Assembly (NCBI GenBank): GCA_035221665.1
Contig: CM069147.1
Coordinates: forward strand, 47,120,001 to 47,184,000
DNA length: 64,000 bases
Reading direction: 5' to 3'
Origin: Okamejei kenojei
Lineage: Eukaryota
Shown in pieces: positions 4,466 to 55,520 of the stretch (positions are counted from its first letter, which is position 1; each line of letters opens with the position of its first letter). The notes under the pieces were generated by a model. That model was not told where the DNA came from and did no database searches. It saw only the letters and a program-made list of their open reading frames with translations. Made by a program: the position numbers and the translations under genes.

Positions 4466-7287
4466 CAACTAGATTTTAGAAAAGATGTGAAAGCTGTAGA
4501 CATCTGTAGGCATCTTTTAGGACTTCTTGGAAAAGGGGTAATAGAAACTGGATCTGATTAAGGTATTTAAAAACGTGAAGATTCTAAAGAGTAAGTAGAT
4601 GGAGAGAAGATACTGTCATTAGTGGAAGGGTCATGAACCTGAGGACAAAGAAGGAAATTACAAAAGAACCAGAAGTGACATGAAGAAAAACTTGTTTACA
4701 GAAGCAGTTAGGATCTAAACTGTGCTGCTGGAGGAAACGGATGGATACCAATTGTGACATTTAAAAAGGAACTGGATAACTATGAGAAAGAAAATAGTAC
4801 ATTTTTATATCCTATGTTCTCAACATTCATGTATATTTAACAGACAAGCAGTATTTTATTTTAATAAAACTTACTGAACAGTTAAAACAAACTTTTGCAG
4901 CAATGCTTCAAATCTCTTCTTTGTTTATTCAAATCTCTGTTAAATTAAACCATATATTTTCCATCTTGAATGGCAAAATTGTCAGTATGCACAAATAAAT
5001 AGAAGGTGTATCTTCGCAGAATTAGATAATGGATATTTAAATGGAGCGGGCAAAACATGGAAGGTGTGGCAGGAAGATTGGAGCAGGGAATCAATTCCAA
5101 GAAGGCATTTACAAAGTTATACAGGTAAATAGTAAATAAATTGCAGCACATTAATTTTTTTGTAAGTAAGCTAGAGTTCACATTAGTTGAAAAAAAATAA
5201 AGGTGTGAATGAAGAAGGTGAATAGAGGAATCTGACAATACAAATACACATCGCCAAGAATTGCCACGGGAATAATACTCAAATAAAAGTTAACTAAGAA
5301 ATCAGGATTTAGTACAAGGCAGATCAAATTGAAAATTAGGGAGTTTTCTTTCTGATCTTGGAGGGCTCAAATTTGTATAGAGTATTGAGACCTGTATACC
5401 ATTCTGGTAGCAAGATACATATGATACCAGAAGGAAGGGATTTCCATATCAGAAAAAGATTAATAATCTCAGTATTTTTTTCTATTGGAAATAAGCAGTC
5501 TGCGGCGAGACCTAATAGATATCTATAAAATTATATTATTGAGATTTGGAGTACAATAAGATGTAAAAACCGAAATTACTGGAAGCACTTAGCAGGTTTG
5601 GCAGCATCTGTTTAAAGAAATAACAGTGTCAGTATTTCAGGTTAAAGATCCTTCATCAAGACTGACTTGAAACGTTAACTCTATTCCATTTTCTACAGAT
5701 GTTGCCTGACTTGCTGACTGTTTCATTGTGAATTTCAGAAGCAATTCAATCTGGAATTCTGAACAAAATTCTTTTTTACACTGTAACTCAGTTGAAATAA
5801 TAGAAACCTTAATGGGAAAGTTCGCTAAGTACATGAGGGGGTAAGGAAATTAAGCGCTATATTATAGTGATAACAAGGGAAGGTTGAGGAGAGGACAAAT
5901 GCTTTTATGGATTAATTGGGCTAAATGGATGGGTTTCAGTGCTGTATGTACCATGTATTTCTAGTTCAACATAATCACCATTAGGCACATACGCATTAAA
6001 AAAAAAACCATATGCTGAATATAGTTTCCATCCAATCTTTGACTCAATTCAAACAAGCATGCTCTTTTGCACCAATGAGTATTTTTCCATACTCTTTTTC
6101 TTGTGGCATCATTTAGTGAATGACTAACATCAATTTAGAGACACACATGGTGCAGTTTTATCTTGCAATCATACATTCATAATTCATGAATAGTTTGTAT
6201 ATATTTAATAATTTGTCATAAATTTGATATGAATTGTTTTTACAAACCCAACAATTAAGTATTTTCTAAAACTGCAATTTAATATGCCTCATCTTTTTCA
6301 AATTGCCTTGGATACAAAGCAGCCTCATTTTTGCTATTTTTACTGCAAAAGAAGACGACAAAGCACAAAACGTTTCACTAAAAATAGAATTGGTAAAGAT
6401 CTGAATTGTTGATTTGCAGCCATTTTCTTAATTTTCTTAGTCAAAATAAAATATTCTATCATATTTGAGAGCCATAGGTGTCAAGCCATAGATGTCAATT
6501 ATTGTTATTCAGAAATATTTATATTAAAATTAATCACTTTTCTAATTATTGTTATTCTATTGTCCCCATTTCAGCTTGTATTTCTTCAGGATTTGTCTTG
6601 TGATTCACAGTTGAATTTTGAACCCAGCCTGTGCATTCATGCTTAAATTATGTACTTGCAGCATAAATTCTAATTTAGAAAAAATAACATAATTGATAGT
6701 GAGCTCAGAGAGAGAAAGTAAACAGCAGTATCTGATGTTGCAGCAAGGATTGTTGCTATGGCGTGGCCAGTAGAAAACTCAAAGATGAGGGCAGTAGACC
6801 ATTTTGAAAGAGTGCTATAAATGGGTGGACAGGGAGACCCATCTGTCAAGTTTGATTCAGCATTAGAGTGGTTACAAATGTTCATGAGAGCTACTGTGGT
6901 ATGTTATACAGAATTGGGTAGTCATTTAGTAGAAGCATCCATTGGGGAGTGGGGTGTGCATAGTTGTAGAAGTAATCAAAGGATAATATAGATAAATTTA
7001 AGGTTTTTTTTGAGTCATTGAATATTTTCTATCTTGATTAATGATGGTTGCTTAGAGGTTCTTCATGATTTCATTAGATCCAAATGGACTCTCATTATGG
7101 CCTCATTAAGAATTTGAACAAGTGGCCTTGAGTTAAGTCGAAAATCAGTCATGATTTTCAATTCTGATAATTATCCAGTGAACTCTTTCACAATCCTTGT
7201 GGATGTCAAGGAAAGATCAGATCAAGCTATGGTGTGCTGCCTTTTCTTCTCTGAAACTGGGCCACTATAAAAGTGAACAGTCCTTGA

Positions 7288-9310: not shown

Positions 9311-10350
9311 ACTATCAAGAATTTACAAAGAGCTTTTTGTTCTTCTGGAAGCAAAGACTCCTGGATGGAGTCCAGAACCAGGGAACATAAAGATCCACTC
9401 ATCAAATAAGAAGGCAATGTTTATTATTAATTCCACAAACTGAAATACTGCACCACAACTGGATGTAGCTCCAATGTCCTTGAACCACTAATATGATATA
9501 TGTATTCCAAACAAATAACATTCAGCAGCTACTTGAAAATCTGTAATAGCTAAGAAGTTTGTTGTATGTTCTGGAGGACTTGGCAAAGCAGGTTCAATGA
9601 CCTTGCATTACAATAGTGACTGCATTTTAGACATTTTAACTGTTGCGAAGGTGGGGTTGGGTGGTTAGAAATAAATGAGGAATTTTTAAAAAATGTGTTT
9701 AAGATCATGGTCCAATAAAGTGGCTTCAAATAATGCATTTTGTATTCAAAACTAAATGGGGAAAAAACGGAAAATGCTGTTTTTCAAGTGGCTATTAAAA
9801 ATTATGACAATTTGATTATTTTATTGATTTATCAGATATCAACTTTTTTTTGCAATAGAGGAGGATGGGCATAGGCTAAGTTAAACATTTGGCATCTGCC
9901 CAATATATCTGCTATACTTTAGGTAAAATGCTGTTATAAATAAAGTTGTTCATTTACCATAATGTGCAACACACTTAGAGCTGTTTTGCTTTCAGTACAG
10001 GCAGATACTTTATCTGCTTTGCGCTGTCTTTGAAGCCTGTTTTCAGATCAAATAATTTTATCACATTTCCTTGTATAAATATATTTATGATAATTTGGTG
10101 ACCTCTGCCGAATGGAAACCAATTGTAGATCAAGTGAAGTATAGTTTGGGTCACAATAATTCTCCATATGGTTTTTGATAGTCCCTTGTCAGCTGTATCA
10201 TAGAGAAGTGCATGCGTCTACTCCTGTTATGTTTATCATACACCTATTCAGTTGATTAGTATTTATATCATCTTTTTAATTGACTTTTAAGAATGCATAG
10301 AAATTATAATTTCAAGATTAGCTTAATTATATTTTTTATTTTAGTTTCAG

Positions 10351-10407
10351 GAACCTGCCTGTCAAGCTGAGGATTTGCAATTCAATTTGCAGTTCTTTGC
10401 TTTGTAG
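10351..10407 (+). other. Candidate stop-containing cassette (poison) exon of NFAT5
   Basis: T-rich tract + TAG/TTTCAG acceptor, TAG|GTCAGA donor, TGA at 10368-10370 in the incoming phase-1 frame. Resembles, from recall, the small stop-containing alternative exon at the same position in mammalian NFAT5. Confidence 0.6.
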
Positions 10408-10666
10408 GTCAGAAGATTATTTAAATTTTCGCTGTTTGGTTATGAACAACCCCAAGTAAATAATAACATACCAACATTTTTTTTCCCTTTATTCTGACTG
10501 GTATCCAAGTATTTGAAATAAACTAAGCATAATTTTATATAATTTTATTTCTTAGAACTTTATACATTGAATTGAAGCTTTGTGAACAATTAAACAAAAC
10601 ACGACAACAATGCTAGCTAACTCGCATTTAAACTATATATTTACATGTGGATTGTACATACCACAG

Positions 10667-11210
10667 ATGTCTCCTCCAGCGGTGGTCAAAGCAACACCTT
10701 CACCCCATCTTCCAAACCTAGCATGCATTCTACCTCAGTAACTGACAACACATCTATGCAAGTAGATAGCTGCACTCCAGAACAGGGGGTAAGTGCTCAT
10801 GGGGTAAGTGAATTACTGAGCTATGAAAACCAGTTAAGTAATGCCCCACAGCTACAGTCCACCCCCAAAAGGAGAACAGTCCTCAACATCTCTCCACCAC
10901 CTGAAGATTTGCTGGATGACAGCAGGATGTCTTGTCAGGATGATGCAGGTGACTCGGAACAGAGCAATAATATTTGGATGGATGAATCAGGCTCTAACTA
11001 CAGCATCATGAGTTCTAGTTCCTATAACGACAACACAACAGTACCAAGGAAATCACGAAAACGTTCACCTAAACAACGGCCTGGATTTGTGCGTGTGGAC
11101 GATGAAGAGTCAAATATGGATGTCTTTGATGCAGACAGTGCAAAAGGACCCCATTATGTACTTTCTCAACTCGTCTCAGAAGGCAAAAACAGCTCAAAGG
11201 GAATCAATGG
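10667..11210 (+). CDS. NFAT5: NFAT5 coding exon (first in window): auxiliary export domain and NLS region
   Basis: Acceptor CACAG|AT at 10666/7, donor GG|GTTGGT at 11210. Encodes [35 protein letters not shown] and [19 protein letters not shown], recognisable NFAT5 motifs. Phase 1 in, phase 2 out. Confidence 0.96.
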
Positions 11211-11565
11211 GTTGGTATAGCTTTTTAAAAATTTTATATGAACTTTTAAGGTAGTATTTGGATAAACCCACACAATATATACTGAAATTTACAAATGCAT
11301 TTTTTCCTTTTCCAAATCGATAGAATTTTCTTTCTATCTCATCTATTCAATTAGCAACATATTCTGAAAAAAGAAATTAAATTATCTTTGGAAGAATATA
11401 TCTAAAAGGTTTTTTTCTTATCTTTATAGCTAAAGATAATATCCATTTGTAGCCCCCAAAAAAACTGTTTAATCCGACCTCCTTGGGTATATATGTCCCT
11501 CTTTTACCTTATTTCCCATTCTGCTAATTATTTTGTGCTTTCCTCTAAAATATATATATACTTCT

Positions 11566-14271: not shown

Positions 14272-15029
14272 TAGAAACATAGAAACATAGAAATTAGGTG
14301 CAGGAGTAGGCCATTCAGCCCTTCGAGCCTGCACCGCCATTCAATATGATCATGGCTGATCATCAACTCAGTATCCCGTACCGGCCTTCTCTCCATACCC
14401 TCTGATCCCCTTAGCCACAAGGGCCACATCCAACTCACTCTTAAATATAGCCAATGAACTGGCCTCAACTACCCTCTGTGGCAGAGAGTTCCAGAGACTC
14501 ACCACTCTCTGTGTGAAAAAAGTCTTTCTCATCTCGGTCTTAAAGGATTTCCCCCTTATCCTTAAGCTGTGACCCCTTGTCCTGGACTTCCCCAACATCG
14601 GGAACAATCTTCCTGCATCTAGCCTGTCCAACCCCTTAAGAATTTTGTAAGTTTCTATAAGATCCCCTCTCAATCTCCTAAATTCCAGAGAGTATAAACC
14701 GAGTCTATCCAGTCTTTCTTCATAAGACAGTCCTGACATCCCAGGAATCAGTCTGGTGAACCTTCTCTGCACTCCCTCTATGGCAATAATGTCCTTCCTC
14801 AGATTTGGAGACCAAAACTGTACGCAATACTCCAGGTGTGGTCTCACCAAGACCCTGTACAACTGAAGTAGAACCTCCCTGCTCCTGTACTCAAATCCTT
14901 TTGCTATGAAAGCTAACATACCATTCGCTTTTTTCACTGCCTGCTGCACCTGCATGCCTACTTTCAATGACTGGTGTACCATGACACCCAGGTCTCGCTG
15001 CATCTCCCCTTTTCCTAATCGGCCACCAT
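14272..15029 (-). mobile_element. Young 5'-truncated CR1 LINE
   Basis: Uninterrupted 211-aa ORF2 C-terminus (LYRVLVRPHLEYCVQFWSP, FFTQRVVSLWNSLP). (TTTCTATG)n tail. ATCTA at both junctions (14269, 15028). Confidence 0.96.
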
Positions 15030-17739
15030 CTAAGCAGACACATGATTGAAGTTTTCATAAATCAACTAAGCTGAAACCAAGAGTACCCTCAAAGGCTGGA
15101 GATAAATATTCTGCTTAGTACCATGAGCATAATCTGGACATTTTAGCTACATTTATGATAATGGGAACCTCATTGTTGGAATGGAGTTTCCATTACCATA
15201 AATGGTGCTAAACGTATATTTTATAATGATCACAAAAATTTATCGTTAAACATTTGGATTGGTTATGGTTGGAATATGAAGCAAAATAAAAAACTTTTAA
15301 ATACTTATACCTTTGGTTAATCTGAAAGGACACTTACATTGTAGAGTATTGCTGTAAGCTTCACTGTTAGCATTTACCACAAGTGCAATCAATTTTTTTT
15401 TACACATTTAATGAACTGCAAATTAGCTTGATTTTTTTAAATGGATGTTGATATTAGTATGCAGTTTTAAGTCCCAATTAGAAAATAATGGCAGTAGAAA
15501 TATTAGGATATGGTTGGATCAATACAAAACAATTGAAAACTAGTTATGTACACATAAATTGTGCACTTTACAATACAGGTCGGTGTTTGGAATTTGATAG
15601 GTGAATAAAAATTAGATTAGAATTGTTTGCTGCTGCATTTATGTTAGAAGTAGTAGGGATGTTTGTTGCATGCACTGTCATTGTGTTTTCACGATAAACA
15701 GTGGTAGCCACTACTTTGGGTATAGTTAAAACCAGTGATGAGTTTCCGAGTTATTTCTTTGGTCTTTAAAAGCAATTTGGTGTAGAATTAAAATCGTCTC
15801 AGGAAGTTAACAATGAACTCAAAATTAATTAGCAGTAAAAAGTTGTGGAAAAAAAATGTTTTGTATAAAAGTGGAAAAATGAGTTCAAAAATATTTTATC
15901 ATTTATCTTCAAACTTATTTTGAAGCATCTCAAGGATAAAATTAAAAATTGTAGCTTTTTGTACTGCAGGGAGGAAAACAGTTCCGTGACTTCAATGATG
16001 ATTTTATGATTTTCTCATACGTTTTTACATAAGTAAAATAAATCCCATTGGTCACAATGGCGCAATTGTAAAGTGCAATATCACTTCTGGCCCATTCTTG
16101 AAAACAGACAATGAATGTCAACCATCCATTTGGTAGGACACACGCACTGAGAAAAAGATTGCACTGAACAAAGCTTACCATCATTTCGGAGGTCTGCTAT
16201 GTTACAGTCTTCCAATATATTCAAGGCTCCCATATTCAATTTCCCGACAAATTCAGTTTAAGCTGAATGGCAAAAGGCTCTTAAGTGCCTCCCCATGTCC
16301 CATCTGAATTTTGTCATGATTGAAGTTGAAAGTTCCGTTGGATATCACTTTCGTCTCAACGTAAATCATTTAATTAATTCCAAAAGGATAGTTTCAGGGG
16401 TCTTGGGAGAACAGGGAGAGGGCAGAGTAACAAGCTTGGCTTCTTAAAAGAAAAAGAAACTGACATTCATATCATACAGAAATATACCTGTAGAAAATGT
16501 TTTCAAGAAAGTAATGTCTTAACAATCAGTCGGTATAATTAAATTGTCTAAAATTTGCAGTTAGAGCGTATAATGTCATTAACATTACATGATCTGCCAC
16601 TACTGAGGTTTCTGTATTTGATACTTTACAACTCTGAGTTTTATTATATGAAGAAAAACATTGGGCCAAATAACGTAACTGTTTACAATAAAAAAGTAAT
16701 CTTACATTTAGCTATTACCCCATTCGTACTGCCAGTGTAATTCCATTGTGAGAGCTTTTATCAGTTTAGTATGATAAATAAAAATGATCCTCAATTCAAA
16801 ATAATGATCTTAGAAAGCTCAACGGATACTTCAGTTTTATATATGTAGTTTTCAAAAATTTGCTTTTATTTCTATTGCGCTAAATTGGTCAGACTACATT
16901 ATACAGCTTACCTTAAACTTTTAATGGCATCCATTGATTTATATGATTGCAGATTAGCCATTTTACCAATATACATAAACAGACCATTATATGGTTGAAC
17001 ATTTCATTGTGTAAGTGGGATATGGAATTAAGTAAGTGTTCACTACAGAATGGCCAATGGCATGTTCTTGTCCAGGATGCTCTAGGTGTTAATTATCAAT
17101 AATACTAATAATGTGATGTTGTGAAGTCTCCTGATTGATTACAATGAACATCCTAGTGAGATTGATCAGCCAGTTTGATTGAGGTCAAGGAGTAGATAAG
17201 TCATACCGTGCAAAGGAAGATAAAGCATGCACAAAAATATTGTCAAATATTGTTAACAATTGTTATTTGGATCTTCCTCACATAGAACGTTAGGTTGATA
17301 TACAATTAACTGGTAAGGTTATGAGCCAAAATGTAGGTGGACAAATTAAATAAACCACAGGGCTCTGCTCTGCATTTTAAGAGGTACCCCTTGAGTTTGT
17401 GTAGAACCTTTTGCATTGCCTTTCATTCTGCAGCATAAATGGACCTATAAGCTTTCTGTGTAGATCTATGTTACCAAATCTCCACCTGTTTTCTGTCATG
17501 TTATGCGTTTGGCAGATAAATCATTCCTGGTATTTAACAAATTTGCAGATCTAGGGTGAAGGAATATTTTATGCTTTGCTTCCTATTCTTGGTCAGAGAA
17601 ATGTCCTAGCAAAATAGAAGATAAATTGAAAATTGAGAAGTTTAAAAGAAATTTCATAAAAAGCATTATATACCTGGTTATAAGACGCATTTTATTTCAA
17701 TCAAGTAATTTTGTGATGGGTATTTTTGATGTTTCACAG

Positions 17740-53949: not shown

Positions 53950-55520
53950 CAGGGCATTCAGAAAGTATTCAGACCCCTTCACTTTTCCCATATTTTATTA
54001 CATTACAGCCTCATTTTTAAATGGATTAAATTCTTTTTTTTATTATCAATCTACACACAATACCCCAGAATGAAGAAGCAAAAACAGGTGTTTAGAAATG
54101 TTTGCAAAGTCATTAAAAAGAAATAGCTGAAATATATCACATTTACATAAGTATTCACACCCTTTGCTATGACTCAAAATTTAGCTTAGGTTCATCCTGT
54201 TCCCATTGATTATCCTTGAGACATTTCTACAACTTAATTGGAGTCCACCAGTGGTAAATTAAATTGATTGGAAAGGTCTATATAAGGTCCCACAGTTGAC
54301 AGTGCATGTCAGAGCAAAAACCAATTGATGGAGACGAAAGGATTGTCCGTAGACCTTCAAGACAGGATTGTGTCGAGACACAGATCTGGGGAAGGGTATA
54401 AAACAATTCTGCAGCATTGCAGGTCCCGAAGAGCACAGTGACCTCTGTCATTCTTAAATGGAAGAACTTTGGAACCACCAGGGCTCTTCATAGAGCAGGC
54501 CCACTGGCCAAACTGAGCAATCGGGGAGAAGGTCCTTGGTCAGGGAGGTGACCAAAAAACCCGATGGTCACTCTGACAGAGCTCCAGAGTTCCGCTGTGG
54601 AGATGGGAGAACCTTCCAGAAGGACAACTATATCTGCAGCACTCCAGCAATCAGGGCTTTATGGTAGAGTGGCCAGAAGGAAGCCACTCCTCAGTAAAAG
54701 GCACGTGGCAGCCCACTAGGAGTTTGCCAAAAGGCACCTAAAGGACTCTCCGACCATGAGAAGCAAGATTCTATGGTCTGATGAAACCAAGGTTGAATAC
54801 TTTGGCATGAATCAGGCACCGCTCATCACCTGACCAATACCATACCTACGGTGAAGCATGGTGGTGGCAGCATCATGCTGTGGGAATGTTTTTCAGCATC
54901 ACGAACTGGGAGAAAGGATCGAGAGAAAGATGAACGGAGCAAAGTACAGGGAGATATTTGATGAAAACCTGCTCCCGTGCATTCTGGACCTCAGACTGGG
55001 GCGGAGGTTTACCTTCCAACAGGACAATGACCCTAAGCACACAGCCAAGACAATGCAGGAATGGCTTTGTGACAAGTCTGTGAATGTCCTTGAGTGGCCC
55101 AGCCAGAGCCCGGACTTGAACCCGATCGAACATCTCTGGAGGGACCTGAAAATAGCTGTGCATCAACACTCCCCATCCAACCTGACAGAGCTTGAGAGGA
55201 TCTGCAGAGAAGAATGGGAGAAGTTATCCAAATACAGGTGTGTCCAGCTTGTAGTGTCATACCCAAGAAGACTTGAGGCTGTAATCGCTGCCAAAGGTGC
55301 CTCAACAAAGTACTGAATACTTATATAAATGTGATATTTCAGTTATTTCTTTTTAATTACTTTGCAAAAATGTCTAAACACCTGTTTTCGCTTTTTTATT
55401 ATGGGGTATTCTGTGTCGATTGATGATAAAACATAAAATAACAATCAATTTTAGAATAAGGCTGTAACGTAACAAAATGTGGAGAAAGTGAAGGGGTCTG
55501 AATACTTTCTGAATGCACTG
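53950..55520 (+). mobile_element. Full-length but inactivated Tc1 (DD34E) DNA transposon, IR/DR type
   Basis: TA target duplication at 53948-53949 and 55521-55522. About 210-bp TIRs starting CAG(G/T)GCATTCAGAAAGTATTCAGACCCCTTCAC. Transposase motifs WSDETK, FQQDNDPKH, WPSQSPDLNPIE with 34 residues between second D and E. Frameshifts and small deletions. Confidence 0.97.

Follow-up and report, generated by a model that had tools for sequence, protein, structure and literature searches.

A candidate stop-containing exon of skate NFAT5 is likely an ancient counterpart of the human NFAT5 poison exon

Comparison with teleost and tetrapod sequences indicates that a 57-nt segment in an intron of the skate NFAT5 gene (10351-10407) is likely the counterpart of the human NFAT5 poison exon, and that this exon is very old. 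We hold it probable that the skate exon, as the counterpart of the human one, acts as an alternatively spliced brake on NFAT5, whose inclusion would stop translation at codon 73 and likely expose the message to nonsense-mediated decay (NMD). The human exon is known and its purpose is disputed, the candidates being decay, readthrough and the production of isoform a.

Results

A stop-containing candidate exon in an NFAT5 intron

The window, that is, the whole stretch of 64,000 nt of skate DNA analysed here, holds an open reading frame (10666-11211) that belongs to NFAT5, with 481 relatives at E <= 0.001 in a protein search. Its best relative is the NFAT5 protein of the little skate, which is 100% identical over the exon beginning at 10667 and aligns to the window and the DNA upstream of it as 13 segments, mostly at 86-100%; NFAT5 occupies one locus in the skate genome. 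The intron under study spans about 12.7 kb between the exon at 10667, which is followed by ten more coding segments, and a 126-nt exon that ends in phase 1 and lies outside the window (G000:C17:47117811-47117936), 12,414 nt 5' of the candidate exon. Two further open reading frames of the window, 14368-15054 (-) and 54855-55316 (+), look like the C-terminus of a LINE reverse transcriptase and a fragment of a Tc1-type transposase, respectively. The features at the 3' end of the intron are as follows (a slash marks an exon boundary).

10323..10327, + strand: possible branch point following the YTNAY consensus, with the A at 10326, read by eye from the sequence
10331..10350, + strand: T-rich tract with two acceptors (AGs at 10343-10344 and 10349-10350)
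10351..10407, + strand: candidate stop-containing cassette exon, 57 nt, CAG/GAA...TAG/GTCAGA, with teleost and human counterparts
10368..10370, + strand: TGA stop read in frame as codon 73 once the exon is included, whichever acceptor is used
10408..10423, + strand: donor GTCAGA, which the teleost shares letter for letter; similarity extends to about 10423
10667..11210, + strand: downstream NFAT5 coding exon with a basic NLS-type cluster, 544 nt

The elements listed in the preliminary description were all present, namely a segment of 57 or 63 nt with a strong acceptor and a TAG/GTCAGA donor about 260 nt before 10667, and a TGA at 10368-10370 that is read in the phase-1 frame from either acceptor, the upstream exon ending in phase 1. 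Depending on the acceptor, the exon comprises 10351-10407 (57 nt) or 10345-10407 (63 nt); both lengths are multiples of three, and the TGA is the only stop in the frame used. The AG at 10349-10350 is common to skate and teleost, and the one at 10343-10344, which sets the same frame, occurs in skate only. A 259-nt intron separates the donor from the acceptor of the 10667 exon. The TGA stands at nt 217 of the coding sequence, 37 nt before the end of the exon and 93 nt before the first in-frame AUG (10723, encoding Met86). The segment 10351-10407 is thus bounded by AG and GT, lies between two constitutive coding exons and would introduce a premature in-frame stop upon inclusion. It has one match in its own genome, and Rfam returned no matches at E <= 1 for 10200-10700.

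Splice-like signals and a stop are by themselves weak evidence for an exon: a stop in a given frame occurs in 8833 of the 12673 57-nt windows of the skate intron (70%), and a simple splice rule finds seven AG..GT pairs of 40-200 nt there, two of which are the candidate segment.

The exon is conserved between skate and teleost as nucleotides

The candidate is raised above chance by conservation, in the form of a reciprocal best match between the skate intron and a teleost contig. Metagenome contigs were searched with a protein alignment of the neighbouring exon at 10667 only, giving 213 pattern matches, two of them confirmed: L012, a teleost-type NFAT5 contig with 2,764 nt upstream of its large exon, and L013, a second contig that matches the NFAT5 exon alignment at 52% over 25 aa. 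Genome contigs gave no further NFAT5 orthologues by protein and viral contigs gave none; two pattern matches in bacterial genome records were taken as chance. The DNA comparison covers one non-skate copy, that of L012, and no tetrapod DNA.

Within the whole 12.7-kb skate intron, the top blastn match of L012 was 10388-10423 (28/36 identical, E = 0.041). The teleost counterpart, L012:2155-2217, is a 63-nt segment running from CAG/GAA to TAG/GTCAGA. In gapped local alignment the skate exon scored 49 against the teleost, as compared with a maximum of 29 among 498 other skate windows (mean 16.0, sd 2.6); in the reverse direction, 248 other teleost windows reached at most 32, so that each segment is the best match of the other. 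Shuffled sequences never reached the score, whether the exon was taken with its splice sites (0/5000) or as the exon body alone (0/5000). The alignment has 39 identical columns out of 63, and the middle of the exon aligns ambiguously, with three small gaps in one alignment and one 6-nt gap in another. Flanking intron beyond about 16 nt was not conserved between skate and teleost (82/300 and 165/300 shuffles reached the scores).

Read in the frame used, the skate exon gives the peptide GTCLSS, the teleost exon GSSL and the tetrapod exon GFASEAGSVCIKNDL, each followed by a stop. The stop thus comes at a different place in each lineage (15 residues in for tetrapods), so it is not the peptide that has been preserved. 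The exon is conserved as nucleotides free of protein constraint, with 39/63 columns identical and the used-frame peptides unrelated across the three lineages. From these comparisons, selection appears to keep the splice signals, the exon nucleotides and the early stop rather than the peptide. Selection may plausibly have acted in each lineage to maintain a stop, though the statistics do not force this conclusion, since 70% of 57-nt windows carry a stop by chance.

The teleost exon links skate to tetrapods and to the human poison exon

We searched 102 records of short NFAT5 proteins (P0161-P0262), many of which are gene models rather than transcripts. In nine of them, six belonging to named teleosts and three to public sequencing assemblies, the upstream exon is directly followed by a terminal G[SI]SL, which is the phase-1 reading of the teleost segment L012:2155-2217. 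Eight records, from reptiles, a bird and primates, end in FASEAGSVCIKNDL, either directly after the upstream exon (alligator, sea krait, one assembly record) or after extra residues (a chimpanzee-type record, a tinamou, three lemurs), and one, from a salmonid, ends in EVPSEAGSVCI; the majority of the other short records continue into intron sequence or close with unrelated tails. Read one frame over, the teleost DNA gives EVPSEAGSVCI-stop-NGL (score 43, as compared with 23 for the next of 2720 positions), and only four base changes over 14 codons lead from the teleost exon to the tetrapod tail. The direct skate-tetrapod peptide match is weak, not being in the top 4 of 12686 positions, and 52 of 12712 positions do as well as the six-codon skate-tetrapod match. 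Homology to the human exon therefore runs in two steps, from skate DNA to teleost DNA and from teleost DNA to tetrapod peptide. The predicted skate tail was found in none of the 102 short records, only two of which are named cartilaginous-fish records.

Four primate records (P0198, P0182, P0191 and P0244) carry about 16-20 extra residues before the stop-exon tail, which may explain why the PTC exon is numbered 5 in one paper. In eel, sturgeon, catfish and char (P0162, P0170, P0190 and P0192), a further conserved alternative piece that begins VPRF follows the 126-nt exon, and in char it runs on into the other frame of the stop exon. Neither the skate intron nor the window holds a match to the extra exon of eel and sturgeon.

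The human NFAT5 poison exon (chr16:69646517-69646578, 62 nt) is classed as 'Unproductive' in two rows of PMC12026817 supplement file 4; its mean phyloP is 7.50, as compared with 5.02 and 4.82 in the coding neighbours, and its dN/dS is 1.53 (PMC12026817). The available text of the LeafCutter2 preprint (10.1101/2025.04.06.646893) presents it as a conserved poison exon and names mammals and chicken as the species covered. The human stop exon is also reported to be conserved outside the primates.

Skate and human exons share the same intron of the orthologous NFAT5 gene, where each follows a 126-nt exon and precedes the large exon by a few hundred bases (259 nt in skate, 547 nt in the teleost and 449 nt in human, the last computed from published coordinates). 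Both hold an in-frame stop and are conserved as nucleotides rather than protein, the sequence link between them passing through the teleost copy. They differ in that the human exon shifts the frame whereas the 57 nt of skate keep it, and in that the skate stop falls at the sixth full codon and the human stop after 15 residues; the tetrapod exon is one base shorter than the teleost exon. Splicing has been measured for the human exon, whereas the skate exon is known from DNA. The preliminary description had proposed a switch conserved across jawed vertebrates: a counterpart of the mammalian stop exon is indeed found in skate, teleosts and tetrapods, but the part of the proposal that made isoform a the conserved output found no support, as follows.

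The isoform-a start is missing from cartilaginous fish

Inclusion of the stop exon is presumably what yields mammalian isoform a. The available sections of PMC3655004 place the NFAT5 export signal at aa 1-19 and describe an isoform a that starts with MGG and has a myristoylated Gly2; according to these and to the accessible part of PMC6115610, the mammalian protein has lipid anchors at Gly2 and Cys5. An MGG start was found in none of 50 cartilaginous-fish records; of 107 scored records from elsewhere, 99 have M[GA]G by the same pattern (3/110 unscored). Conversely, M[HY]STS at Met86 was present in all 50 cartilaginous-fish records, and a similar Met in 8 of the 107 others (coelacanth, lungfish, ray-finned fishes). 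In three RefSeq-type records from shark or chimaera (P0010, P0154 and P0158) the protein opens with M[HY]STS and is 84 aa shorter than its partner isoform. An upstream stop would have this effect, as could any other upstream piece.

Isoform a as the conserved output is thus not supported, given the absence of the MGG start in 50/50 cartilaginous-fish records; in skate, the next Met in frame beyond the stop is Met86, at 10723. Because the MGG start is absent in cartilaginous fish, isoform a cannot be the ancient purpose, and decay with some restart at Met86 is likelier. As in mammals, translation of the skate message could begin further down, within the large exon at Met86, and the protein would then lack the export signal; unlike mammals, skate has no MGG start with Gly2 and Cys5, nor do other cartilaginous fish. 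The start is patchy in bony vertebrates too, since Val replaces the isoform-a Met in coelacanth and several squamates (P0011, P0089, P0097, P0100, P0103 and P0104). The sea krait record P0196 retains the stop-exon tail. An out-of-frame ATG opens the large exon both in skate, where its frame of 24 codons overlaps Met86 as the first in-frame AUG, and in the teleost (L012:2765, 70 codons); it could intercept restarting ribosomes. The available text of a salmon NFAT5 paper (PMC5292104) contains no mention of a stop exon.

Transcript contigs show skipping and other cassettes

For the transcript check, eight of 24 listed runs were mapped on 10101-11300, namely seven contig sets guessed to be RNA and the raw-read run X24, from which no reads mapped. 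Skipping in skate and its relatives is shown by six of the seven, which join the 126-nt exon straight to 10667 (X12 does not cover the junction). The joint from 10407 to 10667 was found in none of the seven sets, which consist of contigs, a form in which rare variants are dropped and an included exon may be lost; short bubbles are often removed in sequence assembly. One contig touches the segment, an unspliced contig of run X1 (10308-10467, depth 2.1) for which pre-mRNA or DNA is possible. We judge it very probable that the 57-nt exon is included in skate messages.

The same run revealed another cassette.

5020..5124, + strand: 105-nt in-frame cassette encoding 35 aa without a stop; run X1 joins it to 10667

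A loose end in X1 matches 5093-5122 at 29/30 letters, with a depth of 5.96 as compared with 16.2 for skipping, and we place the putative acceptor at 5020 from two contigs measuring 163 and 58 and from the AG that occupies 5018-5019. The cassette has one genome match; its peptide occurs in 0/50 cartilaginous-fish NFAT5 records, and it has no clear match in the teleost contig L012 (best score 24). Run X15, from a relative further removed, joins a different piece, some 330 nt long, to 10667 (depth 7.39 vs 64.8); this piece did not map within 110 kb of the skate locus. The acceptor at 10667 has a poor pyrimidine tract and seems to accept several upstream partners. A contig of run X5 extends from the NLS exon across its donor and on into intron sequence (11211-11300), through intron retention or as pre-mRNA.

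A predicted hairpin over the donor

The best lead for how the exon may be controlled is a predicted hairpin that would hide the donor until opened by an RNA helicase.

10355..10412, + strand: predicted hairpin spanning the whole exon (folding prediction)

In the predicted fold, 10358-10360 pair with the donor AG/G at 10406-10408. The skate exon with six intron bases folds at -22.8 kcal/mol, with a z of -3.57 on 63 nt in a window chosen post hoc (0/200 shuffles) and of -1.43 on 111 nt; two of 1793 other skate intron windows are as stable. At 37 C the predicted pair probability of the skate donor is 0.69-0.98 in five contexts, and its occlusion ranks 6th of 23 donor-like sites. The same pairing register is available in skate (15/17 pairs) and teleost (14/17), with p between 0.0006 and 0.19 depending on the null model. 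The teleost hairpin forms when folded without flanks, and with flanks its probability is near 0 (z -0.31); a two-sequence skate-teleost consensus fold did not recover the hairpin.

Discussion

How the exon might act

According to our model, inclusion of the exon would end translation at codon 73 and most of the message would probably enter NMD, while part would escape by restart at Met86, giving a protein without the N-terminal export signal. Under the junction rule, NMD acts on a stop that lies over 50-55 nt 5' of some later exon junction. The skate stop falls under this rule: although its own junction is 37 nt away, ten coding segments come after the 544-nt exon. Against decay stands the position of the stop only 217 nt into the coding sequence, as NMD can be weak for stops close to the start. 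On balance we lean towards decay as the main outcome of inclusion.

The human exon reported as 'exon 5' by Germann et al. in 2012 is said to be a PTC exon promoted by DDX5/DDX17. In the accessible parts of two reviews (PMC12105643, PMC9382309), DDX5 and DDX17 promote inclusion of a PTC exon of NFAT5 and NMD lowers the protein. We infer that this is the 62-nt exon; numbering differs between papers, and the parts available to us describe no structure. The skate exon is alike in containing a stop, and a hairpin over the skate donor would fit helicase dependence. A human NFAT5 event that we likewise infer to be the 62-nt exon is NMD-sensitive in HeLa cells, whereas in the lines HCT116 and PC3 it escapes decay; ribosomes are reported past the stop, and readthrough is suggested, as far as the available text goes (bioRxiv 10.64898/2026.06.30.735642). 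In zebrafish, nfat5 was absent from the six supplements of a upf1 paper (PMC7354994).

A more specific form of control, which we regard as improbable, is an RNA switch common to jawed vertebrates, in which the exon fold hides the donor, DDX5/17 or low ionic strength open it, and high salt stabilises it, leading to skipping and more NFAT5. Were this true, it would explain the conserved exon ends as against the drifting middle, the stop position and the frame, and the unusually stable skate fold would be a version tuned in the urea-rich cartilaginous fish.

Alternative explanations

Restart after 72 codons is usually inefficient, which counts against the reading, unlikely in our view, that the exon is real and mainly an isoform switch, with a stop at codon 73 and restart at Met86 yielding NFAT5 without export signal or lipid anchor. 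An out-of-frame ATG at 10667 also comes first, its 24-codon frame overlapping 10723. The conservation of M[HY]STS in 50/50 cartilaginous-fish records, the three database isoforms that begin there and the start-proximal stop, 93 nt before the AUG at 10723, would all suit such a switch, but the database starts are predictions. It would be suited as well by the export signal at aa 1-19 (PMC3655004, available sections) and by the human event, partly NMD-evading with ribosomes past the stop (bioRxiv 10.64898/2026.06.30.735642, available text), although the human exon is an NMD target in other cells.

The observed skipping, the unspliced state of the only contig on the segment (X1) and a skate copy more diverged than teleost is from tetrapod could also be read as an intronic RNA or DNA element or a silent relic that is unspliced in skates. 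Conservation that is bounded by AG and GT, with both included, makes this quite improbable, as do the teleost and tetrapod records in which the counterpart is attached to the upstream exon. Readthrough of the UGA, by which the 57-nt exon would add 19 residues to full-length NFAT5, has been suggested for the human exon (bioRxiv 10.64898/2026.06.30.735642, in the text available) and would be compatible with the 57 nt of skate and 63 nt of teleost, which keep the frame and have one TGA each. It appears very improbable for an exon whose used-frame peptides are unrelated and whose TGA positions differ, and the 62 nt of the human exon would leave the frame shifted. Leaky UGA stops typically have C as the next base, and the base after the skate stop is G. 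As for chance resemblance, in which the AG..GT stretch would be cryptic and have no kinship with the exon of bony fishes, the blastn E of only 0.041 and the single comparison sequence leave it some room, yet the reciprocal best match, the alignment of both splice sites, the location at the same intron end and the 0/5000 shuffles reduce it to a negligible prospect. A decay-linked poison exon is the reading we retain.

Evolutionary depth and significance

New here are the evolutionary depth of the exon, its differing stops and frames, the missing isoform-a start and the hairpin lead. Such depth of the NFAT5 exon was not found in the literature searched, subscription papers and genome-browser tracks lying outside the search; the high 100-vertebrate phyloP suggests that it may already be visible in genome-browser tracks. 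Since a skate and teleosts both carry the exon, its origin goes back to the common ancestor of jawed vertebrates. Its persistence in animals that lack the isoform-a start, and with a different stop and frame, narrows its ancient job to cutting or redirecting translation. The lineages that carry it offer natural variants for testing the control of a master salt-stress factor across animals with very different body fluids.
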